From Botryllus schlosseri (taxonomy: Eukaryota): a stretch of 64,000 bases of DNA. The translations under genes were made by a program, and so were the position numbers. The stretch is taken from NCBI GenBank assembly GCA_051294905.1, contig CM119372.1, positions 32,302,001-32,366,000 of the forward strand, read 5' to 3'. Numbering within the stretch: the stretch's first letter is position 1; every line of letters starts with the position of its first letter. Below the pieces are notes generated by a model. That model saw nothing but the letters and a program-made list of their open reading frames with translations. It was not told the DNA's origin and made no database searches. Positions 20,844-63,884 of this stretch are shown here, piece after piece.

Positions 20844-21023
20844 ATTCGATATGAGTTTTAGGCACTAAACACAAAAGATCTTATGACTCTATGGCTCTAT
20901 GACTATGACCGATAGGGTTTGCACGAAAGATTATGTGCATCTACAAATGAATCACGCATACTATGTATGTTGATGACGCGTTTTAGCTATTTTGTCTTAC
21001 TTAATGGTACGCCACCCATGGAT

Positions 21024-21479: not shown

Positions 21480-21547
21480 TCGACGTAGTACTATGCTATC
21501 AATTAATCTTATATATGCAAAAAAAACAAAAAATGGGAAGATAGGTA

Positions 21548-22000: not shown

Positions 22001-22116
22001 TTTACTTTTGTAGTTTCCTTAAATATATAATTCCTGGTTATAAATGACCCACCCTTTTAAATCAAACATAAACAATCAATTTTCATCCAAACGTACGTCT
22101 AGAACTCAAAACATGT

Positions 22117-22521: not shown

Positions 22522-22973
22522 TCGTGTAAAACAACAATTTTTGCAAAAGCGACTTCTAAAATCGGAATAGCAACAGTTTTAAATTCTCGTTTAGTTAATA
22601 GTAACGCCGTAGGGGTTCGCAAATTCATTTGCGGTAAGCGTTCATCCACAAACTCTTTGGGTAAATATTCGTGAGCTGGATGCAGCTTGAAGATGAGTCC
22701 GAACCATGTGTATTGGGCCTGATCAAAATTTTTCATAACAAAAACACGAGCAATTTCACCGTGAGCGTTATAAAGCCTATCAAGTAGTTCGGGGTTTACA
22801 TCCGCAAAACATAGGTGTAGATATTTAGCCAATAATTGTTCAAATTTTTCTTTCGGAGTAGCTTTCCATTTATCAAAATTTCGATGATGATATTCTTGCT
22901 CGAATGCATCTTAGTATTTGCTGATTTGTTGTTTAGCTAGCGTAATTTCCCAATTTTCTAACACACTAGTCAT
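22518..22973 (-). pseudogene. Orphan family A, copy 3, with one premature TAA at 22913-22911
   Basis: MTSVLENWEITLAKQQISKY*DAFEQEYHHRNFDKW continues in frame into ORF 22518-22832 and aligns with copy 1. Confidence 0.8.
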
Positions 22974-22988
22974 CTTAATACAACAAAA

Positions 22989-23849: not shown

Positions 23850-23950
23850 CTCTTCAAAATATGAGCACTAACATATTAAAATGTTATTTTTGCTAGGTAA
23901 ACTAGCAATATACCAGCCTAGCAACAAGATTAATAGTCCTGCCTGTCCCG

Positions 23951-25639: not shown

Positions 25640-26089
25640 ATTTATTTTTTTTCCTTAAATTCTATTTTTCGGTGTAGTAGTACATGGCAGAACAGGCATT
25701 CATCTATACTAGGTCGAGGTGATGGTCTCTCAGGTGAATATACCTTATTTACTCAATTCCATCATAATCATACAATTGTTCTGTACACAACACGGAGACA
25801 AGATAAATAAAAACATTGCACAATAAAATATCTCAAACTTGTAACAAGAGACTCTCTAACAAAACTTCAACAACATTTCACATTCAACATCTCATACCAT
25901 TCTCCTTGTCTCACCAGGTGGTTCTAATCAACATTATTTTTCATTTGATATTTCAATCTAATGGAAGAACGATAATAATATACAATTTTTTCATAGTTCA
26001 CGATTGATATGGCCCGCATTCCAAGTGATTTAGCAATCTCCATGGGTTAGAGGTTAGGCCGTCGTTTAATCATTTTGACAAATGAACAC

Positions 26090-26908
26090 TTAATAACGAG
26101 AATTTCGGTAAACAATGTTGGAATTTTCCAAAAATAGGTTCATTGACTGAGCGTTGCTATTAACTCTTTTCGAATATATGTATATATATCCATCCATTGC
26201 AACAGTTTTCGAGTCCAGTATCAAATACCCTTTCACTCCAAAATTCGTTTGACTATGCCAAGTCCACGCGGAGCTAGCACTTCTTATATGACTAAGATCG
26301 TTTGTGCGTATCAAAATATTCGTATATTTCATCACTACTCCACGTATCACTTCATATATTACTTGCCTTATTCCTGAGGGAGGTATCCTTCTGATTACCC
26401 CTAGCAGAGTTTCCGTAATTATAGCCCACGAAATTTCATCCGGCTGTATAGTTTGTTCCTTCCATACTTTTATGCTTTGTCGCTGTGATGAATTCTTTAC
26501 GATGGCAGAATCTTGGGAGTCGTCGGAGTCCGTATCATCGAACGTATCTGAGTCCAAATCGTTCTCTGTTTCGTCCTTAATCGTCCAATCTTGGGTTTTA
26601 CAGATAGAGCATGAATGATGCCTTTTATACCAATTGTTTTCCTTTCCGAAGAAGGTTTTTAGCGCATCGGTTATTGATACAAGACACCGTGGATTTTTTG
26701 TTACCTCAATTTCATCAAGTTGTGTTATCAGATTGCGAAAAATGGCAGCGTTATGATTCCGTATATCGTCTAAATACATTATGTCACTATGAACACAAAA
26801 CGAAAACGTAACAGCAATAAAGGATTCAGTGTTATGTACGTGCACACTAACACTCCCATAGTACTTATGATACCAAGACTGTACTTGTGCTAGATTGCGT
26901 TGCAACAA
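26090..26908 (-). CDS. Orphan family B protein, copy 2; likely ATG at 26779
   Basis: IYEVIRGVVMKYTNILI...WHSQTNFGVKG motif; acidic D/S stretch. Confidence 0.7.
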   Translation of the reverse strand: MLQRNLAQVQSWYHKYYGSVSVHVHNTESFIAVTFSFCVHSDIMYLDDIRNHNAAIFRNLITQLDEIEVTKNPRCLVSITDALKTFFGKENNWYKRHHSCSICKTQDWTIKDETENDLDSDTFDDTDSDDSQDSAIVKNSSQRQSIKVWKEQTIQPDEISWAIITETLLGVIRRIPPSGIRQVIYEVIRGVVMKYTNILIRTNDLSHIRSASSAWTWHSQTNFGVKGYLILDSKTVAMDGYIYIYSKRVNSNAQSMNLFLENSNIVYRNSRY

Positions 26909-27150
26909 TTATTTTCAAACAAGCCGCATCCGTACCAATATCAACCGCTTTTTTATTTTTTATTTTTTTTTATTTTTATTTTTTTTAGTTAAGGAAAACA
27001 AAGGGCATATGAAATAGGATACTTGACTCCGGTACTCAAAACCGGCTGCTAACTCTTTAATATATACAATTTCCATCTTTAGTCAATTTCCAAGATAGAG
27101 GCATTCATGTTAAACAAATTTGATACTTTCAACAAATGCTATATCCAATA

Positions 27151-28098
27151 TTACAATGGTCTGTAATGAGGTTCACTCGCAATTATTTCCAAAAATCTTG
27201 GAAATCTTTCTTCTAGTGCCACTCGTCTTTTCCAGAGCCACTCATGCAAGTATTGGGGAATAAGTGATCGAGGTACACCGCACAATCGTCTGATAGCAGA
27301 CTTAAAAAAATTCCAAGAAGCCTCAATCAGCTGCGTATGCACACCGTCTTCACTAACATAGGTCTTATGGTGGTTCACTACCGAGTGTTTATAATTCATA
27401 CCCAAACTTTCTAATTTGCGATAGCTGGCAAAAGAATCGGTCCATATTGTAGATCCCTCTTTTACATGCTTCATAATTATCTCTGACAATACCGAAGCTT
27501 TTCTTCCTTCTTCAGGTACCAATTCTGCAAACATTTCACGAGTTTCCACATCTATTCCGGCCAAAACCCATCGCTGTCGTATCGGTCTTCCGCGGGGATT
27601 TCCCGGTTTTCGCTTAGCCACAAAGGTCTCATCGATCTGGCATACGTGGGATTTCCCGTGAGATTCACCGCCTATTCTGGTACCTCTTCTCTTCATTTCA
27701 CTTGAGCATACTTTTCGAAGTTTTCTGGACCAATTTACCAAAGTTCTTTTGCTGACATTCGCTTCGAACGCAATCTGTCGCTGTGATACATCTATTGTCC
27801 AAAGATAAACAATTATCACAAGGTTAGCGAGCTCTATTCTACTTCCCTCAAACAACGATCGTTTCCTTATAGACACTGTAGTATTGCACCTGGAAGTAGA
27901 ACACCTCCATCTATATCCATCCCTCAACCATCTACATTTTTCTTCGATCATTGGTTGTTTGCATTTGGAACATGTAGCTTCACGAGCAAGTAAATGGCGT
28001 GAACGCAGAAATTCTATACATTTTCGGCCACTTGAGATGATACCCAACCGAACAAGATGAAGCAGATTGTCCCTTCTCCGGATTTTCTTACATTTCAT
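27151..28098 (-). CDS. IS1595/ISXO2-like (Merlin-type) DDE transposase
   Basis: N-terminal CxxC...C...C Zn ribbon; QIDET, RGR...WV, IWTDS..SY..L, VNH, HTQLIEASW, YLHEWLW; all three acidic residues intact. Confidence 0.9.
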   Translation of the reverse strand: MKCKKIRRRDNLLHLVRLGIISSGRKCIEFLRSRHLLAREATCSKCKQPMIEEKCRWLRDGYRWRCSTSRCNTTVSIRKRSLFEGSRIELANLVIIVYLWTIDVSQRQIAFEANVSKRTLVNWSRKLRKVCSSEMKRRGTRIGGESHGKSHVCQIDETFVAKRKPGNPRGRPIRQRWVLAGIDVETREMFAELVPEEGRKASVLSEIIMKHVKEGSTIWTDSFASYRKLESLGMNYKHSVVNHHKTYVSEDGVHTQLIEASWNFFKSAIRRLCGVPRSLIPQYLHEWLWKRRVALEERFPRFLEIIASEPHYRPL

Positions 28099-28172
28099 TT
28101 TCAATTTATAAAGTATACACTCCAGTATAACGTAGATTCTGTATATACAAAAAAATGAAACAATGAGCGTTT

Positions 28173-28679
28173 TTAGGCAGGCACTTTCAAAGCCATAAAT
28201 CGGCAATCGGCTTCTTTTAACGATATTGCACGTGTTTGTGCATACGCGTAAATCTGAACTTCCGGAAAGATCACCCATACTATGAGATCCCGTTCAGTTT
28301 CCTCATTTCTAAGAAAATCCTTCCAGTCTGGGTTTACCCTTTTCAAGTCTGTAACCCATTGTATCCCGATATCTGCGAACGCCATTTGAATAGGTCTTTC
28401 AGGATAGAGGCTTCCTGCGTAAATCTCCTCCCACTCGTTTTCATCAAGATGTTTCCCAGTCCAATAGTTGTCGCATGTTGGAATACCATACTTCTGTTTC
28501 CAAAATCGTAGTCGCAGATTGGATTCATCCTTCATTACATTATACAAATGATTTGTCAAGGTGTATGTTGTCATGAGGAATTTCAGCGATTGTAGCCCAT
28601 AATCGATAAGTGCTTCCTTTTGGGGTATCCAAATTGGATGTTCTGTCTCCGGATCTTCACAACGCAAACCCAAACACAT
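28173..28679 (-). CDS. Orphan protein, 168 aa; weak similarity to 32255-33079
   Basis: ATG-initiated, packed in the cluster; LKFLMTTYTLTNHLYNV...RLRFW resembles LVMETIKTTPVRDHLMNL...RIQYW. Confidence 0.6.
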   Translation of the reverse strand: MCLGLRCEDPETEHPIWIPQKEALIDYGLQSLKFLMTTYTLTNHLYNVMKDESNLRLRFWKQKYGIPTCDNYWTGKHLDENEWEEIYAGSLYPERPIQMAFADIGIQWVTDLKRVNPDWKDFLRNEETERDLIVWVIFPEVQIYAYAQTRAISLKEADCRFMALKVPA

Positions 28680-28795
28680 ATTAATGGTCCCAGCTATGTT
28701 ATTACTATGGGTTCCTTATACAAACACACACCATATAAGTTGGATAGAACAAATCACACCCAATAAATCAAAACCCTATCATCGTTACTCAAACT

Positions 28796-29827
28796 TTACA
28801 GTAATCGAAATGTGACCAGACACCCAATAATGGTAACTGTTTGTTTCGAATGTATAGTCATAGCGAGGGATGGACTATCCGTCACTTCATAAGGCGAGTA
28901 TGATTGTTTCCGCCAAAGAAAACTTTCATATGACGTTCCGTTAACATATTTTTTAAATTTTAAAACCTCTAATTTTGGTAATTTTAAAAGTAAGGAATCG
29001 TTAAGAGACTGAATATAATTACAACTGAGATCAAGCGTGTGTAGACCTTGGAACGATGTATTGGAGAAAAGAGAGAAAAATTGTACGTTGTTATATGACA
29101 ATGTTAGTCTCTCCAGGTTAAACGAATATTGTAACACTGTCATTTCGAACTCAACCAATTTGTTTCCATCCAGGTGTAACGTTTCCAGTTCTCCCAATCC
29201 TCGAAAAACCCCTCGTTTTATAACCTTTATTGCATTTCTTGATAAGTCCAGTATTTTTAGACGATACAGGTGATTGAAGGCTCCGTCTTTTAACTCCTTT
29301 ATCACATTATTATCCAAATATAATTTTTTTAAATTTCCCAACATTGCAAATGTCGATTCGTTAATTTGTTCCAACAAATTGCTGCTGAGATACAGACACT
29401 CCAGTCGTAGCAGCCCAAAAAAATTTTCCTTCCGAATTTGTTTGATGTAATTTCGCATCAAGTTTATTTCCCTAAGCTTTGCATTATTACGGAAAGCAGC
29501 TCCTTGAAGTATCTGGATTTTATTCCAACCACAGTGCAATACTTCTATGTTCTCATATTTTTCCAGTTGATCTCCAGTTAATTTCCGTAGACAGCTGTCG
29601 TTAATGAATAGTTGTGATGTATCTCTACAAGACTTTGCCAGATATATCTGGTCAGGGTCTGGGATTCTTGTATAAATCGAATGGTCGCACCACAGGATCA
29701 AATTGCTTCCCTGCATGCATTCAGGATACAGTGAAGTTCGTCTATCATACGGCGTACACTTTGATCTTTCCATTATCCCTGAATCGATTGCGATACAGAC
29801 GCCAAACCAACATATTATTACTCTCAT
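28796..29827 (-). CDS. Secreted or surface leucine-rich repeat protein, intronless
   Basis: Signal-peptide-like N-terminus; eight 24-aa LxxLxLxxNxI repeats; Cys-containing N-cap; hydrophobic C-terminus. Confidence 0.9.
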   Translation of the reverse strand: MRVIICWFGVCIAIDSGIMERSKCTPYDRRTSLYPECMQGSNLILWCDHSIYTRIPDPDQIYLAKSCRDTSQLFINDSCLRKLTGDQLEKYENIEVLHCGWNKIQILQGAAFRNNAKLREINLMRNYIKQIRKENFFGLLRLECLYLSSNLLEQINESTFAMLGNLKKLYLDNNVIKELKDGAFNHLYRLKILDLSRNAIKVIKRGVFRGLGELETLHLDGNKLVEFEMTVLQYSFNLERLTLSYNNVQFFSLFSNTSFQGLHTLDLSCNYIQSLNDSLLLKLPKLEVLKFKKYVNGTSYESFLWRKQSYSPYEVTDSPSLAMTIHSKQTVTIIGCLVTFRLL

Positions 29828-30012
29828 ATTGTTTGTTTCGTTAGTAACTTATATAATCAAACATAAGACCATTAATACCCGTTCAAAATTTGCACCAATG
29901 AATCAGTAAACCCATATTTTCATGCTGCATGGAGCAATATAAACATCAACTTTTCAACCCAATATCTTCATATATACACCTTCTTTAATGTCGATCCTTA
30001 CTCTGATATCAA

Positions 30013-30561
30013 CTAATCAATATCAACACTACTTCCCTCATATGGAAAAGGATGTATTTCTATGCGTCTTATCCTTTCTGTTTGCCAATGAATTGAATTC
30101 GAATATCCTTTTAGTCCCAAATCGTTTTGACAAGACCATACTTCAACATGTGGTGGATCTTTACAACTATCTCTTTCATCATACACATTTTTGGAAATTC
30201 TAGTATTCGTAGTTTTTATCACGAGTCCCCTAATTAATTCATACAACATGACTCTTCTTCCAAAAGAGATGCGTTCATTCATTCTGATTGCAAATATGTC
30301 ATTAATCACATGACAGAAAGCATTTAATGTTTCTTGCGCTATTTCGTCATCTAGGGATACATCCACCGGTCCAAAGTTCGTCTGCTTAACCCATTCGATC
30401 TGGTCTGTAAGTAATTCCCATACCTTTTCTTTTACCATCAATATTCTAGATTCGTCATTGTAGTATTTTAGATCCCATTTATCCAATTCCTCATATACGC
30501 CATCCAAAAGGTACCAGTTTGGTAGATTATTATCAACCTCAATATAATCGAACTCTAACAT
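30013..30561 (-). CDS. Orphan family B protein, copy 3
   Basis: VKEKVWELL and LYELIRGLVIKTTNTRISK...WSCQNDLGLKG match copy 1. Confidence 0.75.
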   Translation of the reverse strand: MLEFDYIEVDNNLPNWYLLDGVYEELDKWDLKYYNDESRILMVKEKVWELLTDQIEWVKQTNFGPVDVSLDDEIAQETLNAFCHVINDIFAIRMNERISFGRRVMLYELIRGLVIKTTNTRISKNVYDERDSCKDPPHVEVWSCQNDLGLKGYSNSIHWQTERIRRIEIHPFPYEGSSVDID

Positions 30562-30864: not shown

Positions 30865-32140
30865 TGGAATTCTTCACTTATAATTTTTGTCAAGCGTTTT
30901 CATACCAGCTCAAACCCAATTCCAATCCGACCACGTCTTCATGGTACACTTCATATTTCGCGTTTTTCAATCTACTACTTTAACACTTCACATCCATAGC
31001 GAGTTAAGTTGTCGCTTTGTGCAACTCATCAAATAGTACTGTTGCGGTCAATCTGCTATTAGTAGCGTGCGCGGGGACAATTCCAGACAGCGTACAGTCG
31101 AGCGTAACACTGGCTGAATGAAGCCACAGTCACTGATAGCGCTCAGCCCAGGCGCTATCGAGTAAATGCACCAGAAGCGTATCACCTCCCACAAGGCATT
31201 TTTACCATTTTATTTTATTTATATTTTTTATTAAACGATATGTACATACTACTTTTTTTTTTATTTTTTGAGGATTTTTTTGGTGGGTATATAGAAATGC
31301 TATCACCATCCTTGTCTTCCTCCCCTGTCTACGGAAAATGCTGGCGCACATTTTCGCTTAGACGTGTTCATCCATGTCACAACTAGGAGCTTAGTTTTCC
31401 CACAAGTCAAGCACAAGGTACTTTACTTTATATGAATGTCTTCTTACTTTGAGAAATATCAAGTTTGGGACCCAGAGTGAGGAGAGGTGCCAAGAGACAA
31501 GGATGGAAGTATGGACAACTTAAATAAAGATTGGAATAGTACTAATATAAAATTTTCGAATCAAAAACTATCGAGAATAAGCTCAAGGCACAACACATCT
31601 ACATGTAGCGTATGTCTCAATGACAGCTCCATAAAACTACATAATAATCGCAGCATTAAAGAAAGATCTAGTGATAACAAGAAACTGTCTCGGGTTTATA
31701 TCTAGCAGAGCGTAAAACGTGGAAAAAACTTGAAAAATAATAAATAAAATTAATCATACGTGATCAAATGATTAGCAAAGCATTCCACCATGAACACGAG
31801 GTGATTTAAATGGCAGATGGTCCGGGGCTGTTACACGTTAATATTCGCCGTTCTAGTCCTACAGACGACACAATTCAACACCACATTTCACATCACCAAT
31901 GACCGACACCGCACAGACTTTCATCAATGACAAACTCATGGTCTTTTCTGAAGCGAAAAATCATTAATATACATATAGTGGAAATAGCTCATTGCTACAT
32001 TCAAGTATATAGGCATTTTAGTAGTCCTAGAGATTCTATTCAAGAGGCAGTGGTAGCGAGTCAATTCACAATGATAATTCGATGTATCGGAATATTGCTA
32101 TAAATCGGACCAATATATAATAACTCCGTTTATTTTACCG
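30865..32140. repeat. Diverged direct repeat module B
   Basis: Collinear with 18490-20100. Confidence 0.75.
30890..31199 (-). pseudogene. Decayed gene, copy B (paralog of 18516-18810)
   Basis: SAISDCGFIQPVLRSTVRCLELSPR, RLTATVLFDEL and VYHEDVVGLELGLSWYENA*; same terminal TGA as copy A. Confidence 0.7.
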
Positions 32141-32254: not shown

Positions 32255-33079
32255 TTACAAGTTTGAACCTTCACACATTTTCATTTTTTTTGGCTTGGGC
32301 AAAGTTTGGCTCCCATGTCCTCTACCCGGGGAGAGCCCAACGTATTGTATATTTTCAATCGACGAGGTGCACTCGTCACCTCTTTGTTGGGTACCTTCGT
32401 CTTTCTCTTTTCGAGGTTGGTGAGTTCGCTCTGACAACTGTTCAATAGGAAGAATGAAAGCACCTCCCACGAAGCCATAAATTGTCGTAGTTCCATATGT
32501 AAAGCTCCACCCTTCAGGGTTTCCGCCGTATAGTAGTTCAAATTCTGCCTGTTGTCGCAACATTAAAACATCCCAAAGGGGCAACTCTTTATCATTTCGA
32601 TAATATTGAAGCAATATGGCAATGGCGGTTACTAGCGCTTCTGCGTATAACACGTATAGAACTAAAAGTCCCTTTTCTTCCTCAGTATTTTGATTCAATG
32701 CCTTATTAATTTTACACGCGTCTTGTACGCAAGTGTGACACAGTTTTACAAGTTCCATTACATCCCAAGTGTTTTGAAAGTATGCACGAACGTTCCTCAT
32801 AACCCAACACTGTCTGCATTGATCAATTGTGGCCGGGCGGAATGGCACTTCCAATCTTGTCCAGTCCCCTTTTGTAAGTACGCACTTTTGCCAATATTGG
32901 ATTCTCGGGTTAGCATTTCCATGAGCTCCCATCAATAAGTTCATCAAATGATCTCTAACCGGAGTAGTCTTGATAGTTTCCATTACTAGGCGTTGTCTAT
33001 GCGTTAGCGGAATACTCGATGCCCACTTGAGTGCAAAACTATGATCAACTTCAGGCTGGCACAGAAGTCCGTGACACAT
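32255..33079 (-). CDS. Orphan protein, 274 aa
   Basis: Long ATG-initiated intronless ORF with a CxxC pair and a hydrophobic segment; last ORF of the island. Confidence 0.65.
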   Translation of the reverse strand: MCHGLLCQPEVDHSFALKWASSIPLTHRQRLVMETIKTTPVRDHLMNLLMGAHGNANPRIQYWQKCVLTKGDWTRLEVPFRPATIDQCRQCWVMRNVRAYFQNTWDVMELVKLCHTCVQDACKINKALNQNTEEEKGLLVLYVLYAEALVTAIAILLQYYRNDKELPLWDVLMLRQQAEFELLYGGNPEGWSFTYGTTTIYGFVGGAFILPIEQLSERTHQPRKEKDEGTQQRGDECTSSIENIQYVGLSPGRGHGSQTLPKPKKMKMCEGSNL

Positions 33080-33224
33080 GTTGTCTAAACTAACTCTTCA
33101 CCTATATCCCTTTTTTTGAAGAAAAATAGAATTACTGGGCGTTGTCTATGCGTTAGCGGAAAGCTTGATGCCCACTTGAGTGTAAAACTATGATCAATTT
33201 CGGGCTGGCACAGAAATCCGTGAC
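32982..33224. repeat. 94-bp duplication of the 5' coding end of ORF 32255-33079
   Basis: 32982-33075 is repeated at 33131-33224; the copy lacks the ATG. Confidence 0.9.
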
Positions 33225-36200: not shown

Positions 36201-39200
36201 CATATACGCTCGATAAGTCATTTCACGTGATACACTATTGCTCTATTTTACGTTTCATGCATGATCAACAGCGTTCACAGGCCAACAGCAACTTCGTGTG
36301 CCATCTAAACAAATATACAACTGCCTCTATATAGTGTTGTTATTACAGGCTCCGGAATCAAACTAGCACGTTTTGCACTCGTAGTAGCGATCTACTAGAT
36401 AATTAAATACTACAATCAGTTTTTACAGCATTGCTTTTGCATTTACAATCCGACAGTTTATGCGCTTACGGTCTTATCATGGACATATTTGATTTTCGTC
36501 ATCGTGTCGTTTTTCAATGATCAAGCAACCCACAACAACGATGACGAACAGTCATGCTGAACGCTAATCAGTGAACACTGAGCAGTATTGCTGGTAGCTG
36601 AACATTCAGACACTCTAGATTACATTGTTTACGTCATTTTATAAATAGTATCTTTCAAGATATTAAGGAAGCATACCAAACGTATTTGGTATATTTGTAG
36701 TTTTACAGCAGGTGTGAACTTTATGCTATGATCTGCTACGCCAGGTCTGCCCCCACTGAATGCATTTCTAGCTCGTACCAGATGTATTATTAACACACAA
36801 GCAACCACATATCGAAACACTGGTGCTGGCGTAATCATATTCTCTGGCCATTGCGAGTTCGCGACGAGCGTTCCACGTAATTTAACCTTCCCCGCGACAG
36901 GGCCCATCAAGTGTTTAATCATCAATTCCCAGAAGGCCTACGTTGAGTGACTCGGCACAGGCGTTGTAAGCCAAATGTTACCCCGCGATCACAGAATGTG
37001 ATACTGCCACAAACATGAATGACCTTAGAGTCGTCGACACAGAGGAGGATCTCAAGTTAGACACAGAAGATGATCATCCCGCCTCCGTATTTAATCGGAT
37101 ATCCGCCCGATATTTTGGAAGTTCGGCGTAAACAACTATTCAGGTGTTTACAGACGGTTTCGTGGAATACCCTATCCATCTTTTGAAAAATATGTCAAGA
37201 ACCCTTAGTTGCATTATATCACATCCAGAGTTAGGAAACCAGAAAATTCTCGATTTTCCAAACCGAATCACAGCCACAAACATTATTATCGTCCAAGAAC
37301 ATGCTCCAAATTAGATTCAAATCGTAGTTTCCTAACAGTTTCATAGGTAGGTCAGAATTAAGTTTCCTGAGTTTGCAAAATGTAGGGAATTGTATTATGT
37401 TCAGTTCTTATGATTTAAGAATTCATGAAAAATAGTATGGCAAATGTCTCCGCGGCAAGCTCGGCTCATTTTGCACTGTACAGCCAACCTGTAGGTTTTT
37501 CTGGAAGACCATGGATAAATTCAACTAAAATTAGAGCATGGAAACATTTCGCAAACTGGACCAGAACCAGACCACCAGCACCCCGCTCTAATCTGTCTAA
37601 TCAAACAACCAGAATTATCCAATTGCCACAGTCCGTTACAGAGACAAGATACTGCTTAAATAATGGAGATTCCTGTACCAGTCCAGTGGCTTAATATGGC
37701 TGATCAATTGATCATATATATGTGGCTTTCTCGCTAGTTCAGGCATCCATCAACTACGTAATTAGAAGATTTACACTGAAGTCCCAGCTGTCGTTAGTTA
37801 CTGACTTTTAATGTATCAGATAATCGCATCAATTTCCAGACTGGTACGGGTTCGTTTTAATTTGGTGGGGCATCTCTTCTTGCTGCAATTCACCTATATC
37901 CGCGGCCGATATTGAACCATTGTTTTTTTTTTTATTTTTTTTTATTTTTTTTTAAATGGGCCATATAGGATCCTGTGCGAATTTCACACTTTACTGGCAT
38001 AAATCCGGGGAAAACAAGATCTACCGTACAAATGAGCTGTTTGGTCCAGTACAGGGGTTCCCAAAGGTTGAGCCATGGCCCACTGATAGGCCACAGAGTA
38101 TTTAGAGGTGGGCCACAGAGCTGTTTAGAAAACTTCAGAATTTTTGTAAGTGTAATAGAGGTGGTCAAAACAGTTAATAAAGCTACTAAAGCAGAAGCAG
38201 AAGCAGCGACTAAAAAAAATATATATATATCCACTCCAATACGAGTGGAAGCACTTCTCACACAAGCAACCCGAAACCACCCGAAGCAGAAGCAGAACCG
38301 GTTGACCTTGAAAGTACTCAAACAAACAAGTAGTTGTGAAAACGGTTCTGATTGGATGGATTATAAAAAGGTGCAAATGGAGCTATGTGATTGGTGACGA
38401 GCTTAATTCATATTGATGCACACCAGCAGGCATTCAATTTTCGAAAGTATAAGCATTCGTCCACTTCACGGGATGAAAATGATTGTATCGATCAGAAATG
38501 TGACGCTAACCCTCTACTTTCTCGAACAACACGTTTTGGAATATAGCCTGGTATGGCGCCATCCCCCATATTGTAAGGGTGGTAGTTTAATCGAAGAGCA
38601 ACCCGTAGAAATTGTATCGGATACGGTGTAAACACTTTGCACGATTAGTATACGTTAATACAAAATATGGCGGAGTGCAAAAATGCCATATTGTGTAGCC
38701 CTATTCCCAGAAATCAAAGTCATTACTACACTTGCTTTTATACTTCAACATGTATGTTATCCGGACAAAAGAACTGATGATAATTTCAACTCAAGGTATA
38801 TGATACTGGGAATTGAAAGTAAAACACAAATATTACTTCTAAGCGCAGAATATGTACTTTATGTCTTAGTCCAGAAGGTTTTCAAAGTGGTACGCCAAAA
38901 CAGCTCCAAAAAAAAAATTTTCCACTCTTCCAGATTAGGACACGCCCTGGACATGTTTAGATGAAGCACTTCGCCACCAACCGCCTCTGAAGTTTAGTTT
39001 TACCACTAAAAATTTATGCGCATGATCTAACTATACGTCGGCTACTTAGCTACAAAGCTCTTTATCCGACGCTGATCAGACGTAGTTACATGTATGATGT
39101 AAGCATATGTACCAATCGAAAACGCTTGCGGGAAACGTTGGCTTTCCTACTGGCTACGACAACCCACGGCCAACAGCAACCAAAACAATGCTGAGACAAC

Positions 39201-46713: not shown

Positions 46714-48005
46714 GTTGCTATCCCCATTAATTCAGACGTATATCAACTACTTCATCGCGTACGGCTCCAACGCACACACCCTGTTGATTCTGAAAGCCTA
46801 TGGCGTAGACGCAAGAGTGGTTTGCAACTTCAATCGATAATTTCACAACCGAGCAGACCCCCTATACATTTAATACAGGATTCCTCGCTCGTGGTACGAC
46901 ATTGGCTTAGATATTGAAGTGAAGCCGATCACTCTATGGTTTTTGATGTGGCAGGCCCCATAACTTGTGCTTATATATTTGCGCAAAACAGATAACATTT
47001 TAACAGGTAAGCAGCTCTCAACCCCGAATTATCCCGGTTGTGTACCATATATGTAGGTCATGTTAGGACTGCCATACGTCCGGAATTTTCCTGTTTAAAC
47101 TGCGCCCGGGAGGAATCTCCAAAATATGCCTTAATGTTCGAAATTTTGGAGTTCTGAAATAGGCTCAAAGTGTTTTCGTAACTCAGCGGAGCCGATAATA
47201 TTTTGGGGCAGATCTATGCCATTTGAGATTCCTCTTCGCGCTGCGCGTGATTCAGTGTCACATTCATTGATCCGCCACCCTCGCAAAGCATGCGAAAATG
47301 GATCAAAATTTTACAGTAACACATGGAAGAAGTAACATTATAGACCGTTTTCAGTCACAAAATTTACCGACCAGATGCGCATAGAAACCCGAGGTATTTC
47401 ATATGGCCCCAGCAGTTACATCGACATTAATTATTCCGATTTACTGCACGAAACCTGCGAACTGTATCAATTCTTTTTCGAGTAAAAGCCAGCACTGCGT
47501 TCAATGTTTTACACACCAACTATCCGTGAGGTGACTCTCGTGGAGCGAATCATTACTTAACATTTCATATTTTGATCGAAATATGCTGGGCAGAACAGGT
47601 ACTGCCTCAATTAGGCACACTATAGTTCCATTTTGATGTTGAGAACTGATTAACCATCCCGTTACAAGTTGCAAGTATACTTAGATACATAGATATATAC
47701 TCGCGTCACGACGATCAATCCAAGTTAAAAGCTACATTCCTAATAGAAAACGAGCAATCAGATATGCGGAAGTTACAACCGATTTTGAAGAAATTACAGT
47801 CCTTACACATAGAGGCAATTTTCTGGCTGAATACCCAGTACATGTTTGCGGACTAATAATTTGTACTTTAATGTTCAATAATGCCGCGCGAATACATACA
47901 CCCACAGCGTCATTGCAAACAATCATCAAGTCAGTCGTGATGTCCGTATCAGGTCGTAGGCATCGCAGGTCTCGAGCCATATTAATTTATACGACAAGAG
48001 TATTA

Positions 48006-48890
48006 CAGAGGTAGTCAAAGTAGTCAAGAAAGCTACTCAAGTAGAAGTAGAAGTAGTGGTGAAAAAATCTACTCAAGTACGAGTAGAAGTACTTCTTTCA
48101 TAAGCCACCTAAAACTACTTGATGCAGAAGTAAAATTGACTGACCTCAAATCCACTCAAGTAAGTAAGTAGTTCTGAAAACAGTCTTAATTCGTTCGCAT
48201 GGATCTGTCAAAAGCTGCAAACTGAGCTATCTGGAAGATGCAGAGAGCTTGATTTGTATTACTGCGTCTCAGGAGGTATCAATTTTCGACAGGATAAGCA
48301 TTCTTTCGCATCATGGGATGCAAATTAAAGTATTGATAATTGCTAGATATCGAAACAGTAGTTTCAAATTTTATGGTGGGCCATATTTATTGTGATGAAA
48401 TATTTAATATGACCGATATTGCGGTATGAGCAGAATCAAGCAATCCGGTACCTAAATAATATTCACGGGTACTTTCGCGAAAACATATCTGTCAGTCCAA
48501 AACTACTGTGCGCGAAGCGCAACCAAATTTCTGGGCTTTACTTGACTTTTATGAATATCAAATGTTGGTACTACTACTGGTCACCCCGTATCCACTATGC
48601 GCGAAGCGCGACGAAATTCATGGGTTTCTCTCAAATTTTATGAAAATTAGATGTTGCTGCTCCGTGAAAACAGCCCCGAAATTCCTCAGGCTATCCTCCC
48701 GTTTGGAGGATTAAACTACTTCTATTTGACAAACTGAAAATAGTGAGAAGTAAGTAAGTAGATCACAAAATATTTCGAAGTAGAAGCAGAATTAGCGAAA
48801 ATCAGATCTACTTGAGTAAGTACCAGAAGTAGAGGAAAACCACTTGAGTACTTCGAAAAAGTAGAAGTACTTTGTCACTGACCACCTCTA
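48006..48890. mobile_element. MITE-like element with agtag/ctact subterminal repeats
   Basis: agaggtagtca versus tgaccacctct ends; ctactcaagtag motifs at both ends. Confidence 0.6.
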
Positions 48891-49389
48891 AGTATGCGAC
48901 GCATCAATCAAACTACTTCTTATCAGACTGCTGTACCTTTTATTCATATATATTTTTGTTTAACGGCTTCGACATGTATTTTACGTTTTGAATCCCAGAC
49001 GGAACAGTAGCCATGCCTATCACAGGGAAAATGGATTCCTGTTAACAAATGTTTTCAAGATTCAAAACAGAACATCCCCGAACAGCAATATGTATGTATC
49101 AGTAGTTCACTGACAATCTCGGTATTAGAATCAGTCCTGCAGTAGCGAAGCGAAACTATCATGCGATCAGTCTAAAAAATTACAAATTACAAACAGGTTA
49201 TCAGCCATTCCGCAAATTCTGAGAACTCGCGGCTCCTCAGCAAATGCCTCATCGCGGATTCCCTGCCAAGAACCACCGCCCTAGGGTGTTTCGAATACAA
49301 TCCCAATTGTCAACTACACGTTTTAGGTAATCGCTGTTTAACCATTGTTGTTCTCCGAGCTGAAAGTTGTAGAACAATAGTCGAGAACT

Positions 49390-49900
49390 AAACGCGAAAC
49401 GAGAGATAGGCACAGTCAGACCAAGCCACCCCACTGACCACGCAATTCATCATAACTAGCGCCGAACTTATTATAACCAATATTAATCCAATGTGACCGT
49501 CACACTGATTTTGAAAATCTTCTGAATCCCCAAGGTATTTGGCGGTAACATATATCCTTGCTCTATACGCTTACTTTATTCGCCTGTAGAGTTACGTGTA
49601 TGCCAAGAACGTGGTTAGTTATGACGTTGTTTGCAATTCAAATTAGGGACTGCAAGTGTCACCTCTGCGGCATTCTTATTTCGCATCGTAGATCAGAAAA
49701 ACAATATACATTTTAAAGTTGCTGCGTCATTATGGTGTCACTATGTCCGCTATTTACTCCACGTACCTTGAAATCCAAGATTTCAAATCACGTAGACCAC
49801 CTTAAATTCGCGAGTGATATTTGGTCGCCGGTGTGACGGTTTCTGATATTTGATGATTTTATATTTGATGATTTTATCATGATATCATCACCAAGAGGCT
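49390..49900. repeat. Dispersed repeat, copy 2 (see 1340-1870)
   Basis: Collinear shared blocks with 1340-1870. Confidence 0.7.
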
Positions 49901-57631: not shown

Positions 57632-57821
57632 AACCGACTACGAGGAAGAGACAAGCTGGAACATTGAGAAGATCAGCGTGCTCGTGAAGCCGAAATCGCA
57701 AGAGTCCTTGGCCGCCACATCGAGCCTGCTCAAAAAGAACAAGGCCTTTGAAACTGAGCCAGCCGTGCACAAGAACAGGGTCAAGGGCGTAGTGAAGGAA
57801 GGAAGGAAATTGATCGAAGTG
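57632..57821 (+). CDS. Internal exon of an unidentified host gene
   Basis: Pyrimidine tract + tttcag acceptor, GTAGGT donor, open frame TDYEEETSWNIEK...KLIEV, GC-richer codons. Confidence 0.7.
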
Positions 57822-58931
57822 GTAGGTCCTTCGTGTGATAGTCTCCGCCAATTCTGATTATCATGTTTTGCCAATAAGACGCCACCTTCCGAAAGCGCGT
57901 TATTTGACCTAGGGTTGACCCCACTACTCAAATATCTCTAAATTATACGGTCTGTGCGCCGGCATCAGATATATCATTGACGAGATCCTCAAATTCGCTG
58001 ATTTTTGACCGCCGCAAGATCCAGATCGATTGCAATACAGCACCTAAAACAGGTATCGCAAAGCAACTCACGTTAGTGACTTAACTAGCTAGCTATTGCT
58101 CCGCAACCTTCTCACGACGCATAATGAAATAGGTATGGTCCAAATGAATGGTACTGAATCATCTTCGACGTGACGTCGAATTGGCATTACATTTTATAGT
58201 AATGGTTTTTGATGTAATTTTCCCTATTCTCTGATTTAAATTAAAATTAGTGTTATAGCTTCAAGGTTTTCTGTTCCAAGTCAACCTAGAGATTAGGGTT
58301 GCAGCTGCAGTTATATATATATATTATTATTTTTTTTAAACTTAGATTGTATTTGTAATAAATATATTTCCAATATTACAACTCCGAAACTTAATCTTGT
58401 TCAGTTCATGTCAAATCATGTTCAGTCTACCAGTCAATCAGGTCCATCAGTTTATTCCTATAAGCACGAGATTGACGAATGTCTCAACAGTAAGTCTCGC
58501 TTGTTTTTCACTATGAAGTGTCTCCGCACCATCACCAGGAATGCCTACAACTCAATCAGAATTAATATTAGAAATGGAATTCATTTCGCAAATTAAATCA
58601 TAATTCGATTACCGTATGAGCTCTCTGCTCTAATTAGACTACAATTTACTAATCATCCAAGTCTACCCAATTAGAATGATGTCACTGTTTTAGTATCGCC
58701 GCTGACATCGATCGTACGTAGGCTAAACGTTTTCTTTATTTGTTACCCTAATACGTTTTTAATTATTGCGGTTTGCGTGACCTAATTCCATATGTTGAGA
58801 AGTTCTCGTGTCAGAACGAAGCCAGGAATTGTTACGTGTTAGTTGCCTGTGATTCGTAAACTAAAAAATCTTTGCCGCGCGATTATTTGTGACACGAGAT
58901 CCGATTTCAATCTTTTGCGAATGATATTCAG

Positions 58932-59060
58932 GACAATCCCGAGGAGAACGAAGAGATTCCCGACAATCCAAAGGACAGGGAAGACAAGCTGGACGAAGCG
59001 GCCCATAAGCGAAGATCAAAACTACTGGCCATCCAGGATTTTCTGCATCTCAACTGGGAG
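58932..59060 (+). CDS. Next exon of the same host gene
   Basis: ttcag acceptor and GTAACG donor; phase 0 matches the previous exon; DNPEENEE...QDFLHLNWE. Confidence 0.7.
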
Positions 59061-60572
59061 GTAACGTGTTATAAATTTTACTATGACTCCCGATCCCTGG
59101 CTCAAGGTGCGATTTTCAAAAGATCAGAGGTGTGACCGCAAATTCGAATTCTTCATTATGCAGTACAACATTTCCCGAACACTTTCGACTTGTAGTTTTT
59201 CGTTGACTCCAAAAATCGCCTTCTAAACAGTAGTGGTCAAAATTGACCGAGCGCTTCCCCTTACAGCACCTAAGTAGCTTTATCTACTATTTTCACATAC
59301 CCGAGTGGTCCCTTTATTTATATTACTTACGCGTAGTAATAATTTTAAAGACTCAAGTCGTGCAACAAAACACAATTTTTTGTGAGTACCGTAAACCGGG
59401 GCAACTTTGGACATTAAATAGTAAAAGGTTACGGTAGCTAAATTATAGTTTTACGGCGGAATGTGGCCGTACGACCGCGAGTACCCTTGGCACCCTTGGT
59501 CTGACCGAATTCAGGATGAACACTTGAGCAATGCTGCAACGTATTGGGAATGCTAAACACGAATCTGAGCTGTAGTGGTGATTTCCTCAAGAATCATTAG
59601 ACAGATAGCGCAAGCTGAGCACATGCTAGCTCCACCCTGTGTCAAAGAGAACTTCTAAGTCCATGACCATAGGTTAAATGATGAGAAACATTTGCTTACG
59701 GCCTCACATTTTGAAATATTACACATCCAGTCAACCTGCCCTGAAACATAAACCGGCGTATTTATTGTGATGACTATAGTCATCGACTTTTCGGTTCATT
59801 TGCGGATCCGGTACATCCCACTACACCCCATCCGAGTGGTTCACCCCCCTTTTAAATATATTATGGTACACCCTGAGGTGTGCGAAAACCCCGGTTGGAG
59901 ATCACTGCCTTAGACGATTCGAGGTGCCATGGCACGCTACGCTGCATAGCATAGTGTAATTTTAGATCTAATAAAAAAGGTATCTGAGCATAGCAACAAC
60001 AACTTACACACTTTACAGCGCGAGGGGATAAACACTTTGATGTATTTTAAGGCAGGTATGGTATGAGGCGATTGCGAAAAACAGTAGCTCCAATCACAGG
60101 GTAGGGCGGTACGAAATTTGATTATTTATGTGCTACAAATTAACTCCCGAATTCTTGGTAGGTTTCGATAAATTTTTAGGTTTTCTTAGCACCGCTCCCG
60201 GGTCAATATGACTTCATTTTCGATTTTAATATAGTTTGGCCCTTAGTGATTATATCCCTACATTACAGATACGGGCAGCAGAGGAAGATGATGCGCCCCA
60301 TATAGAAACACAAATTGGACTCGTGTACCCCCCACTGCAACCACAATCTTGATAGGAAACTCCAGGTCAGTGCAACTTCTGTATCCTGTTTGCCCCCTCA
60401 ATAAATTATGTAGCAGACAACCAACACTTTAACCACACAAATCTACGTTAACGAGTTATCTGACCCAAACACAACTCCAAAAGCGAACATTCAAACAGTA
60501 CTAAAGAGTTGCGCAAACCTTCTCGCCCCCACCCAATACTATTGAGAAACATCTTTGTTACTTATTTCTTTA

Positions 60573-63500
60573 TTAACAGTTTAGTTTGTCCTGCCACGCG
60601 ATAGTTGTTATACATGATTTTTGGTTATTTCGTCGAGCAACACCTCTAAAATATTTTTTAGACCCGTTATTGCAGTACTTTTTGTAAACCACATATACTA
60701 ATAGGAATACGACAGACATACATACTGCGATAATTATGGAATCAATGTTTCGCGGATTTATCAATCCTCCGCCGTTGTATAATTTAGTAAAAATGTCTCT
60801 TACCGTGTAAGTCCGTTCAAGTATTTGTAAGTTATACAATTCTTCGTAAAAATCAAAATCACTTTGGATCAGTCCGTCATATGCGGTGTTCTGCGATGTG
60901 CTGTGTTCATTGAAGATCGTCATCTTTAGTACTGTGTTTCCTGATCCGATCGGCAGAGCCTGTCTGTTGGTAATTGACGACAAGATCGCCGTATCGTCCC
61001 TCGGATCAATTGTTGTTGGTCCAGATGTGCCATCTCCTGATGAAATTGAAGTGGTTATTTTGGTACTTACCTTTCGATCATGCTGTTGGAGTTGGTGATC
61101 CGGCCCGGTGATGGAGAGGTGCATATTCGTCACATAGTACGGATCTGTTTCGGTTGTTCTTCCAGCCCGTTTTGTTTCCATCACATCTACGCGGCGTTGC
61201 ATTGATATTGTGCGTCGATGATTTACACGCAATGGTTGCGTATAAGGCTTGGTTTTTAGGTTAGTTTCGAACGTCTCTAGCAGTCGTTTCTTAGGTACAA
61301 GGCTTGACTCTCTTCTGATCAGGGTGGATGGATGACGAGTCGTTGTATCAATTCCCTGTAGCAAATTTGCGCTTTGTATTGAGGGTGTAAGCGTCGTTAA
61401 TTCATCCTCGGAGACGGGGTCCTTAGTCGTCCTGACTATGGTGGCGTTAATGGAGTCGATCACCGTTTGTGGTTCGCGCGTTGTTGTTCCCTGAGGACTC
61501 CACGTCCTTAATATATTCTCGGGATCTCTAGAAAGACCAGTGGTCTGACTATCGGCACTCCATGTTTGTTCCGCTTCTTCCAACAGATCAGTTAGTGGAC
61601 TCAGAGTTGCAGACACATTCATTGCAATCTTACTGACCCTTGCAGTTCCTATTCCCTTAGTCCTAAATCGCGAAAGGGTTTGGGATTTTCCATCCGTGGC
61701 GGTCTCAGTCCCAACCGTTTCCTCCCTTAAAATATTACGCACGGCAAGAGACGCTGTCGTCGTAGCAGTAGCAGTACCCATTACATGTGATATTTCTTCC
61801 AATGTAGTGGGCGTATTTTGAGTTGTTGTGGTATGTTTCAAATCTCCCGAAATCGTTCCTTCTGGAACGGTTATAAAACTAGGAGCGACGGAGATCGACA
61901 CAGGCCTTTCCTTTAGTGATATGTCATATTTGCCGTCGGCGTCGTCAGCCACTGGCACCGTTGAAGTAACTTTTACCGAAGTAGGTCCCAAATCATTACT
62001 CAGGGAAACCTTATGTGTCGTCCCTGCAGTAGTCGTTTTCAAACTACCACTTTCCCATGTTTTCATGGTTGTACCGCCCACCATCACCGAAGTGGTTTGC
62101 GGAACTCCTGTGGTCCATGTGGTCCTAGCGTGATGGTTCTCATGGTCATCACTCGCGGTTAGCATCACCGTTTGAGCTGTGAGTTTCTCCCCCGCATTAT
62201 TCCTATAGGCATATGGCGTATAGACCAAGGCACCGTCACAAAACGTCCCCCGATAGATCCACCGAGACTGAAATAACTTTTCGTCCCTCACTTCTGCATG
62301 AATTAGCTTTTGTGAGGCCATATAATTCAGAAGTATCGTATTCATTAATTTTGCTTGTTCTATTAATGTCGTTCGTAGGGTGAGGTTATGCCTCATGGAT
62401 AACTCCTCAAGTTGTCTTCGGGAGACGGGTTTTTCTTGCGTTTTTACGCCTCTTCTTATTCGAACCTTTAGTTGTGACAAGTGTTCCTTTATCTTATTTG
62501 TGTATTGTACCCCAAGACGGGACAGCCAGTTCCTAATACCCCCTTGTCCATACTCATTTGGTGCCTCTCGAGAAGGGGATAGTATAAACGCAAACCTTTC
62601 CCTCCCATTTGAAATCAAGCAGGAAGTTTGATTATCCGGGGTTGCTAAAAGCTTTTTCGTCCGTGTTCGGTTTTCAGGAGCAGCAATTTGCATTGCACCG
62701 TGTCGGGGATCCGCAAACACTGCCCGCCCCTCGAAAGGATCGTATAATACTCTATTGAATATTAAGGCTGTTTCGAGATCTCCCACAGCCGTCGAACAAA
62801 CTTGCCTATTTTCTTTCAGTTCGCACCGCGAGCTATTATGTAAAAGAACCGGGTAAGGGTCATACATTGTCATGTCTGAAGGTTGGGGTTTGGCCCTCGT
62901 GCGGATGAATGCCGTATCGGTTTTTCGTCCGTCGAACATCACATGCCAATGCTCCGTATATGTCTCGTTTCTTGCTTGTAGCCATACCAGATTCTCGCTT
63001 ATCCTTGGCAGAGGGACTCCATTAGGCCATTGATTGCTAGAAAAGGTTTTTCGCCTATCCGGCGGTTTTCCAATAATACTGGGATCGACTTCCTGTATTA
63101 CAAAATCTAGCGGCAAGAAATTGTCATCCGGTTGTTCCCCCGCGAAGTAGCATTCTATACAAATCACTCTACTTCGACGCCTTCCGGGAGTAACACAATG
63201 GCTGAATCTATTCTGTCCGATATCCCATCCATTACGACGCCCGAACTGATAGTGACAATCTGCTTCCACCGTCACATATTGTTCTAACAGGTTTATGATC
63301 ATTGTCTTATATACGGTTAGTCGCTGTAATGTCTCGAGGGGTAAAGAATGCAAGACTCGGGTTTCTACGTACCTCCAAAAATGTATTACTCCCAGTTTGC
63401 CGTTGCGTCGGTACTTTATTTTTCGAGAGTAGTAGTCAGTAGGGTTCAGATCCGGTAATATCCACGACCCAGTCCTTCTGCACACACACTCCCGTTCATA

Positions 63501-63884
63501 CGCCCAGGTTTCATTCCAATACCTGGCGCTTTGGGACGCTGGGGATGATTTGGGCGCAAGTAATTTGTATAAACTTTGCGGTGTGGCCTTTAACGGACCA
63601 AACGCTGTGCTGTCAACCTGTATCTGATATCGACGTTGAACGTCTCTTCGAGGCCAGTCTCTTCCTAACACAAAAATTCGTGACAAGGGCACCCCTTGCG
63701 GTCTTGGTGGGGCGTCGAAAGGCATCCATCCCGTAATATTAAAGACGTCCTCGGACTCCACGATCATAGCAGATAAGGGTAGTAGGTTTTCGTCAGTTTG
63801 GGCTTTCACAAAACAAGCCCACAGGGTTAACAACAGCAACCCTTGTAGTCTTTTCCCTTTGTACAGGCAATCAATTATTGGCAT
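60573..63884 (-). CDS. Env-like type I membrane glycoprotein, 1103 aa, intronless
   Basis: Signal peptide, Cys-containing ectodomain with N-glycosylation sequons, RIRR furin-type site, helical segment, T/S-rich stalk, TM IIIAVCMSVVFLLVYVVY, short basic tail. Confidence 0.7.
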   Translation of the reverse strand: MPIIDCLYKGKRLQGLLLLTLWACFVKAQTDENLLPLSAMIVESEDVFNITGWMPFDAPPRPQGVPLSRIFVLGRDWPRRDVQRRYQIQVDSTAFGPLKATPQSLYKLLAPKSSPASQSARYWNETWAYERECVCRRTGSWILPDLNPTDYYSRKIKYRRNGKLGVIHFWRYVETRVLHSLPLETLQRLTVYKTMIINLLEQYVTVEADCHYQFGRRNGWDIGQNRFSHCVTPGRRRSRVICIECYFAGEQPDDNFLPLDFVIQEVDPSIIGKPPDRRKTFSSNQWPNGVPLPRISENLVWLQARNETYTEHWHVMFDGRKTDTAFIRTRAKPQPSDMTMYDPYPVLLHNSSRCELKENRQVCSTAVGDLETALIFNRVLYDPFEGRAVFADPRHGAMQIAAPENRTRTKKLLATPDNQTSCLISNGRERFAFILSPSREAPNEYGQGGIRNWLSRLGVQYTNKIKEHLSQLKVRIRRGVKTQEKPVSRRQLEELSMRHNLTLRTTLIEQAKLMNTILLNYMASQKLIHAEVRDEKLFQSRWIYRGTFCDGALVYTPYAYRNNAGEKLTAQTVMLTASDDHENHHARTTWTTGVPQTTSVMVGGTTMKTWESGSLKTTTAGTTHKVSLSNDLGPTSVKVTSTVPVADDADGKYDISLKERPVSISVAPSFITVPEGTISGDLKHTTTTQNTPTTLEEISHVMGTATATTTASLAVRNILREETVGTETATDGKSQTLSRFRTKGIGTARVSKIAMNVSATLSPLTDLLEEAEQTWSADSQTTGLSRDPENILRTWSPQGTTTREPQTVIDSINATIVRTTKDPVSEDELTTLTPSIQSANLLQGIDTTTRHPSTLIRRESSLVPKKRLLETFETNLKTKPYTQPLRVNHRRTISMQRRVDVMETKRAGRTTETDPYYVTNMHLSITGPDHQLQQHDRKVSTKITTSISSGDGTSGPTTIDPRDDTAILSSITNRQALPIGSGNTVLKMTIFNEHSTSQNTAYDGLIQSDFDFYEELYNLQILERTYTVRDIFTKLYNGGGLINPRNIDSIIIAVCMSVVFLLVYVVYKKYCNNGSKKYFRGVARRNNQKSCITTIAWQDKLNC

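Follow-up and report, generated by a model that had tools for sequence, protein, structure and literature searches.

Non-fusogenic derivatives of envelope (Env) glycoproteins are already known from animal genomes, among them Iris of Drosophila and HEMO (ERVMER34-1) of primates (PMC1262188, PMC13461226). Iris is a domesticated env of the Kanga/roo type that lacks the furin site and the fusion peptide, has been proposed to act as a decoy or dominant-negative protein, and has shown synteny; the accessible part of the source describes no mucin stalk for it (PMC1262188). HEMO is Env-derived and non-fusogenic, with a conserved open reading frame (ORF) and an ectodomain that is shed, according to the available portion of the report (PMC13461226). 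Here we describe an ORF at 60573–63884 on the minus strand of a 64,000-nucleotide stretch of Botryllus schlosseri DNA (assembly GCA_051294905.1, contig CM119372.1, positions 32,302,001–32,366,000; hereafter the window). Its product very probably derives from an undescribed family of viral Envs of class I type and is itself non-fusogenic, a long threonine/serine-rich stalk having taken the place of the fusion half.

Among viruses, the pneumovirus G protein is a type II, mucin-like attachment protein that binds without fusing, beside a separate and unrelated fusion protein F. Filovirus GP carries its mucin domain in GP1, before the furin site, and its GP2 has a fusion loop, a CX6CC motif and the full fusion machinery. 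The ORF protein may work as pneumovirus G does, as an extended mucin-like binder, but it is type I and appears to have been carved from a fusogen. The initial annotation had likened it to the filovirus protein, an analogy that did not hold: there is no sequence link, the stalk follows the basic site and stands in place of the fusion machinery, and the ORF protein has no CX6CC motif and no Pfam or PDB match.

Several retroelement families carry type I glycoproteins of their own, including the invertebrate Ty3/gypsy errantiviruses with F-type or gB-type Env (PMC13524379), lokiretrovirus (PMC7947760) and the Tor elements of Oikopleura (PMC4402516), as far as the accessible text of these sources goes. 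The F-type and lokiretrovirus Envs have a furin site plus a fusion peptide, as do three of the relatives described below (P0063–P0065). The layout of lokiretrovirus Env also resembles that of these relatives, but it matches PF00523 and they do not (PMC7947760); no match to the baculovirus-F or paramyxovirus-F Pfam families was obtained for the ORF protein (E 0.05) or for any of its six relatives (E 0.1), and six motifs of the family to which the ORF protein belongs were not found in the readable part of the eLife supplements to PMC13524379. The Env proteins of Tor3b/4b are described, in the part of the paper available, as having, ahead of the transmembrane (TM) segment, seven conserved cysteines together with the motifs F-X-G and N-[LV]-G (PMC4402516); this cysteine set is absent from the ORF protein, which has a single cysteine (549) between residue 423 and its TM anchor. 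Burro elements are retroelements of giant size that carry cargo, BIR domains and env and keep their integrase, according to the accessible sections of the source (PMC6431247).

Results

An intact single-exon ORF for a type I membrane glycoprotein

The ORF is intact, lies in one exon and encodes 1103 residues with the layout of a type I membrane glycoprotein from a viral Env family. It is the sole long ORF of the window past 33.1 kb, and its length compares with a longest stop-free frame of 168 residues in 30 base-shuffles of the region from 33.5 to 64 kb. The signal peptide, single TM segment and short tail that the initial annotation had described for this 3.3-kb frame are all present. The signal peptide comprises residues 1–28 (63801–63884; this and all other features of the ORF are on the minus strand) and includes an N-terminal hydrophobic stretch spanning residues 13–28; mean Kyte–Doolittle (KD) hydropathy over 11 residues (KD11) peaks at 2.61 at residues 16–26 (LLLLTLWACFV); cleavage after VKA28 was placed by eye on the basis of hydropathy. 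The TM anchor occupies residues 1049–1067 (60684–60740; KD19 2.69). It is followed by a basic, cysteine-bearing cytoplasmic tail of 36 residues (1068–1103), which together with the stop codon and an AATAAA that overlaps it, a possible poly(A) signal, covers 60569–60683. The protein has 12 cysteines within residues 6–549, eight of which fall within residues 133–363, and nine N-glycosylation sequons ahead of the TM anchor.

Between these ends lie a head resembling a surface subunit (SU; residues 77–416, 62637–63656), a predicted helical neck (447–532, 62289–62546) and a stalk (570–1000, 60885–62177) that is rich in threonine and serine (T+S 0.29) and non-repetitive. The fractions of threonine, serine and proline are 0.19, 0.10 and 0.05 over the whole stalk and 0.19, 0.10 and 0.06 over residues 590–970, which agrees with the T/S-rich region of about 380 residues noted earlier. 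Internal repeats were searched for in the stalk and none were found; with this content and no repeats, the stalk is modestly mucin-like.

Host membrane mucins combine proline/threonine/serine (PTS) tandem repeats with SEA, EGF or vWD domains. In the ORF protein there are no internal repeats, and Pfam yields no SEA, EGF or vWD domain, its only match being a sub-threshold one to the TM segment. By domain content the protein is thus not an ordinary host mucin, and the earlier assignment as an envelope-type glycoprotein is borne out by the homology of its head described below. Lipocalin-like clusters of the ESM Atlas proposed for the head (0.79–0.82) were rejected, as shuffled proteins score likewise.

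The head is shared with a family of predicted fusogens

Using phmmer with residues 28–600 against 1.84 billion representative sequences, we identified six relatives at E<=0.001 (P0061–P0066). A word-indexed search with the same residues returned nothing among 7387 candidates, which were proteins of 606–1931 residues only, and neither did one with a seven-row alignment among 7916 candidates. The relationship was recovered in the opposite direction: a profile built from P0063–P0066 alone finds the ORF protein at E 9.4e-34 over residues 77–416 (hmmsearch) and P0062 at E 4.3e-57. Together with the alignment and the cysteine positions, this profile match delimits the SU-like head, which has the motifs W..ER.C.CxR, YK.M.I, F..QE.D, P.L....C and YDP in common with P0063–P0065.

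The relatives fall into two designs, one fusogen-like (P0063–P0065) and one fusion-less (P0061 and P0062); P0066 is a head fragment that stops before the cleavage region. P0063–P0065 begin with a signal peptide and a head that is about 400 residues long; a basic site (RNKR, REKR or RKKR) comes next, and immediately after it a hydrophobic peptide and then heptad-rich helices. Mean KD hydropathy of the 18 residues after R-x-K-R is 1.36, 0.66 and 2.26 in P0063, P0064 and P0065, respectively, and the two complete proteins, P0064 and P0065, end with a Gly-rich amphipathic segment and a TM segment. The ORF protein resembles these fusogen-like proteins in its homologous head, signal peptide, C-terminal TM anchor and a collinear LF..Y..DG motif; it differs from them in lacking their R-x-K-R and hydrophobic fusion peptide, apparently also their heptads and, compared with P0064 and P0065, the Gly-rich amphipathic segment near the TM segment, and in having the T/S-rich stalk instead.

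In contrast, P0061 and P0062 span the cleavage region with neither R-x-K-R nor a hydrophobic peptide. P0061 is the closest relative of the ORF protein (37% identity over residues 342–486) and looks like a broken fragment of 180 residues. P0062 (722 residues) comprises a head, a helical neck, the motif, a T/S-rich stalk and a TM segment, and aligns with residues 122–637 of the ORF protein at 24% identity. Its stalk is about 120 residues long, versus about 430 in the ORF protein, with no sequence likeness between the two. Since P0062 has the same design at 24% identity, at least two lineages have retained the fusion-less architecture.

None of the six relatives matches a viral Pfam family (E 0.1), and none of the four tested against PHROGs (P0062–P0065) matches there. 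Sequence hits in the PDB, obtained with both alignments and with P0065, were judged to be chance (fluorescent proteins, a sigma factor and a haemagglutinin at E 4.5), as was a hit to ribosomal protein uS3 over a helical stretch (best E 0.0015). The Atlas clusters nearest to P0065 are coronavirus spike, haemagglutinin and F0 proteins (0.86–0.88), which we regard as a lead only. A scan of prokaryotic genomes for Env confirmed none of 42 pattern matches.

Probable loss of the fusion machinery, and the RIRR motif

The sequence RIRR at residues 475–478 (62451–62462), a possible furin site, lies exactly where the initial annotation placed it; the protein contains no other R-x-[KR]-R. Its reading there as a furin site of the Env type did not hold up. 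A motif of this form arises in 56% of 2000 shuffles of the ectodomain and in 51% of 2000 shuffles of residues 29–570; the equivalent position in P0061 reads QVRE, and P0062 contains no R-x-[KR]-R at all, so that neither of the two fusion-less relatives carries RIRR. The 18 residues after RIRR have a mean hydropathy of -1.26, versus 0.66–2.26 after the site in P0063–P0065, in line with the earlier remark that no fusion peptide is obvious. Because its position is non-homologous, it is unconserved and it is expected by chance, RIRR does not appear to be the cleavage site of the family or a site of maturation.

To compare the cleavage region among the proteins we used two landmarks that bracket it, YD[PS], which closes the head, and the pattern [LIW]F-x-Y-x-[DN]G[AL][LI]. 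This pattern, defined after the alignment was seen, has a single occurrence in every one of the four full-length proteins. In the ORF protein it lies in the LFQSRWIYRGTFCDGAL motif (residues 537–553, 62226–62276), which is collinear with the fusion-subunit motif of P0064 and P0065 and with P0062. The furin site precedes the motif by 144 residues in both P0064 and P0065, and RIRR precedes it by 62. Between YDP and the motif there are 191 and 181 residues in P0064 and P0065, 156 in the ORF protein and 137 in P0062; this shorter spacing indicates that roughly the length of a cleavage site plus fusion peptide is missing from the ORF protein.

A low-confidence AlphaFold2 (AF2) model places helices at residues 447–482 and 489–532, followed by a beta hairpin. 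A helical segment near RIRR had been noted before; the helix is predicted, and RIRR lies within the helical run, not ahead of it. On this secondary structure and the landmark spacing, the neck has no preceding fusion peptide and is probably a shortened remnant of the first helix of the fusion subunit. Downstream of the motif the fusogens have about 150 helical, amphipathic residues up to the TM segment, where the ORF protein has its stalk, and no second heptad or amphipathic region was found beside its TM anchor. A frameshift origin of the stalk was rejected, as tblastn with the relatives found no fusion-subunit homology in other frames.

Surroundings and base composition of the ORF

The window has about 40% GC, shows no general CpG depletion and contains no Rfam hit. 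Together with the spliceosomal spectrin-like exons and the animal-type inhibitor-of-apoptosis protein described below, the GC content and CpG frequency point to an invertebrate animal. The initial annotation had described the ORF as co-oriented with a retroid island at 8556–33079 (minus strand), and the shared strand was confirmed; the two are not continuous, the ORF lying 27.5 kb from the nearest ORF of the island and 45.7 kb from its gag. The gap between them contains no minus-strand ORF longer than 142 residues, and its DNA has repeats in common with the other flank of the island (1331–1838 versus 49381–49860, 66%). No blastn match at E<1e-3 joins the DNA from 57.9 to 64 kb to the island. 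Within the gap, 37969–38492 and 47999–48337 are two decayed copies with 69% identity that resemble a fragment of a DEDDh exonuclease by eye and have no Pfam hit.

Among the 127 stop-free frames of at least 58 residues between 33.3 and 60.4 kb, a single one has a Pfam match; it lies on the plus strand and encodes a diverged repeat of the alpha-spectrin type. It corresponds to an exon at 57632–57821 (plus strand; Pfam Spectrin E 7.5e-8, also matching alpha-spectrin in the PDB), which is diverged, is flanked by CAG/GTAGGT sites and has a G+C content at third codon positions (GC3) of 0.75. A second exon at 58932–59060 (plus strand; CAG/GTAACG sites, GC3 0.63) is in frame with the first and is presumably spectrin-like as well; no further spectrin exons were found in the window. 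The description of the surroundings as intron-rich host DNA is thus upheld only in part, by these two spliceable exons and not by the remaining frames. The exon pair (57632–59060), with its intact GT-AG sites, is probably a pseudogene fragment. Because these exons lie nearby on the opposite strand, the ORF may be situated within a host intron or pseudogene, in antisense orientation. A promoter-like AAAATGGCGG occurs at about 56645.

A candidate long terminal repeat (LTR) 3' of the ORF, a purine tract followed by TG at 59853, was rejected: it lies inside an apparent small DNA-transposon insertion, identified by eye, and has no partner repeat.

Base composition favours an element origin for the ORF without pointing to a particular element. 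Coding-strand AT skew is 0.165 in the ORF, 0.156 in pol and 0.215 in gag of the island, and -0.011 in the gap DNA. GC3 is 0.435 in the ORF, 0.44 in gag and 0.475 in pol, compared with 0.63 and 0.75 in the two small, possibly pseudogenic host exons. Tetranucleotide log-likelihood of the ORF is -1.379 under a gag-pol model, -1.392 under a cargo model and -1.393 under a host model.

The retroid island

The island (8556–33079) consists of cargo ORFs, gag and pol, all on the minus strand. Its gag (12029–14872) has a zinc knuckle, and its pol (8556–12041) encodes a protease-like segment (FLADAGS), reverse transcriptase and RNase H; where an integrase core would be expected, it has a Tpt1/KptA domain (Pfam E 1e-7). 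An apparent remnant of the integrase zinc finger (HEH...H...C) can be seen by eye between RNase H and Tpt1. The same pol design occurs in P0001 at 46% identity, so the Tpt1-bearing pol represents a family; a scan of prokaryotic genomes for this pol confirmed one of 139 candidates, a 500-bp contig with 26% identity, which was not used. We found no relevant report in the literature of a Tpt1-bearing retroelement or of an integrase-less cargo element.

No Env was found among the ORFs of the island. Just upstream of gag, an ORF of about 115 residues (14881–15225, minus strand; MLSKTTIAKLVLVISL...) has an N-terminal hydrophobic anchor and an S/T/N-rich ectodomain, as in a small type II mucin-like protein. 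Tandem arrays are also found upstream of gag (77 nt x10.9 at 17594–18439 and 57 nt x4 at 15652–15877). A decayed BIR copy lies at about 16590–16760. Dense, intronless cargo at 20391–30561 (minus strand) includes an E2, an inhibitor-of-apoptosis protein (IAP) with three BIR domains and a RING domain, and a leucine-rich repeat protein, as well as two paralogue families of unknown function (20391/22117/22518 and 22989/26090/30013). Co-oriented among this cargo is an intact ISXO2/IS1595 (Merlin-like) transposase (27151–28278, minus strand), around which no inverted repeats were seen; it could be the integrase of the island or a passenger.

Duplicated non-coding blocks at 18512–20025 and 30886–32072 (66–69% identity) each head a gene module and are possible remnants of promoters or terminal repeats. 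A hairpin at 8069–8328, with 114-nt arms that are 92% complementary, lies 230 bp past the pol stop codon and could be an element terminus or an unrelated fold-back insertion. At the upstream edge of the island, a duplicated 94-nt block (32982–33224, 91% identity) overlaps the start of a 274-residue ORF.

Discussion

The evidence above makes it highly probable that the ORF product is an Env derivative without fusogenic activity and stems from a viral family of class I type that is so far undescribed. We put at about even the chances that this derivative is still part of, or recently arrived with, a mobile retroelement or virus that is separate from the island and has its other genes beyond 64 kb. 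An attachment protein, or a second element extending beyond the window, had been suggested in the initial annotation, and this remains the best reading.

The most likely role of the product is to bind or block a receptor, not to fuse cells. Its signal peptide would direct it into the endoplasmic reticulum, and the head, whose homology to the family is clear, presumably retains the surface-subunit fold and binds a receptor or glycan. Comparison with the relatives shows that the segment holding the furin site and fusion peptide is missing, together with the membrane-proximal half of the fusion subunit. With no fusion peptide and no second heptad region, a protein of the class I mechanism would not refold into a hairpin and would not fuse membranes. 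The stalk of about 430 residues, probably O-glycosylated, would project the head far from the membrane. Binding without fusion would suit a protein for attachment or tethering that works alongside a distinct fusogen, or alternatively a receptor-blocking protein that confers superinfection exclusion on cells carrying the element; RIRR may permit incidental shedding of the head.

Several observations weigh against this account of a non-fusogenic Env derivative still borne by a mobile element. The class I identity of P0063–P0065 is assigned from their anatomy because searches of Pfam, PHROG and the PDB yielded no relative, and the viral nature of the six relatives is likewise assigned from anatomy because they come without genomic context. 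In a tree of the SU region the ORF protein groups with P0062 at 88/85, a join flagged as long-branch. Homology between the neck and the fusion subunit is weak by hhalign (P 0.012 for collinearity of the motif region over 50 columns, 0.063 without the YDP region), and the neck falls outside the top three heptad windows of the ORF protein by a simple heptad score. AF2 gave models with a mean predicted local distance difference test (pLDDT) score of 30.7 from one sequence and 36.6 from seven, so no fold was obtained. Around the ORF no gag, pol, LTR pair or target-site duplication was seen, with only 116 bp upstream of it in the window, and its flanks show no similarity to other parts of the window. 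The codon log-ratio of the ORF (+0.003) is intermediate between those of gag and pol (+0.030 and +0.039) and those of the 12 cargo ORFs (-0.011 to -0.091).

The structural check proposed with the initial annotation, AlphaFold followed by Foldseek, yielded no confident fold, and the pLDDT 36.6 model returned no match at E<=0.001 in BFVD or the PDB, a null result that is uninformative because the confidence of the model is so low. Prediction of a three-copy complex of residues 395–567 gave no answer (score 0.00, with the alignment unused and the fold of the segment itself uncertain) and is evidence neither way.

The foremost alternative, which we consider possible though clearly less likely than a mobile-element gene, is that the ORF is a host-domesticated env comparable to Iris or HEMO, without furin site and fusion peptide, that serves as a surface decoy, restriction factor or adhesion molecule; the biochemistry would be the same and the gene host-owned. 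Iris, too, has lost both of these parts and is likewise an intronless, env-derived type I membrane protein, although the Env from which Iris derives is of the baculovirus-F type, to which the ORF protein shows no such likeness by Pfam (PMC1262188, in the part available). HEMO derives from a vertebrate retroviral Env, with which a sequence link was neither sought nor found, and shedding would be a possibility for the ORF protein. In favour of domestication, the 1103-codon frame is intact amid decayed element relics, no element genes were seen nearby, AATAAA sits at the stop codon, and the same design occurs in P0062. Against it, codon use and strand skew are like those of gag and pol and unlike those of the nearby host exons, two small ones that are possibly pseudogenic, and P0061 looks broken, as expected for decaying copies of an element.

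We consider it unlikely that the ORF is the env or attachment gene of the integrase-less Tpt1-pol element, in the order env - cargo - gag - pol, with the DNA from 33 to 60 kb being interrupted or captured. The shared strand and a composition nearer to gag and pol than that of any of the 12 cargo ORFs tested are consistent with such a link, as is the lack of an Env in the island, which otherwise carries gag, pol and an ORF for a small membrane mucin. However, the A-rich bias is generic among retroelements, and the two are separated by about 27 kb of repeat-laden DNA that holds the opposite-strand spectrin-like exons, no minus-strand ORF above the length given, and repeats common to the other flank of the island; with no DNA similarity between them, membership in the island, as first proposed, is not sustained. 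Slightly less likely still is a bolder version, in which an undescribed retroid virus of invertebrates, either giant or made of several components, would unite the Tpt1-pol family with a duplicated class I Env. One Env copy would have become mucin-stalked, giving the ORF protein as the virus's dedicated means of attachment.

That the ORF protein is a functional, furin-activated fusogen with a cryptic fusion loop and RIRR as its priming site, in the manner of filoviruses, is very improbable. The frame is intact, and RIRR, with a predicted helix behind it, fits the furin consensus perfectly, but the residues following RIRR are polar, the site is non-homologous and missing from both P0061 and P0062, no second heptad or amphipathic region lies by the TM anchor, and a long T/S-rich chain separates the helix from the membrane. 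Least probable of all is a recently dead relic whose frame is open through youth alone, since its design recurs in P0062 at an identity that would need long-term selection, and its signal peptide, cysteines and TM anchor are all intact.

Read as a non-fusogenic Env derivative, the ORF belongs to an Env family without Pfam, PHROG or PDB match in which one branch swapped the fusion half for a mucin-like stalk and kept the head. We found no report of such a conversion from fusogen to stalked binder in an invertebrate retroelement, in literature mostly outside subscription journals, nor anything relevant on a mucin-stalked, domesticated invertebrate Env or on a split of attachment and fusion in reverse-transcribing elements. 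If the attachment protein of a giant retroid virus were indeed at hand, it would bring a division of attachment and fusion like that of paramyxoviruses into a reverse-transcribing element. More generally, if the gene is element-borne, it would point to separate attachment and fusion proteins, or to self-encoded superinfection exclusion, in a retroelement; if it has been kept by the host, it would be a candidate restriction factor of an invertebrate.

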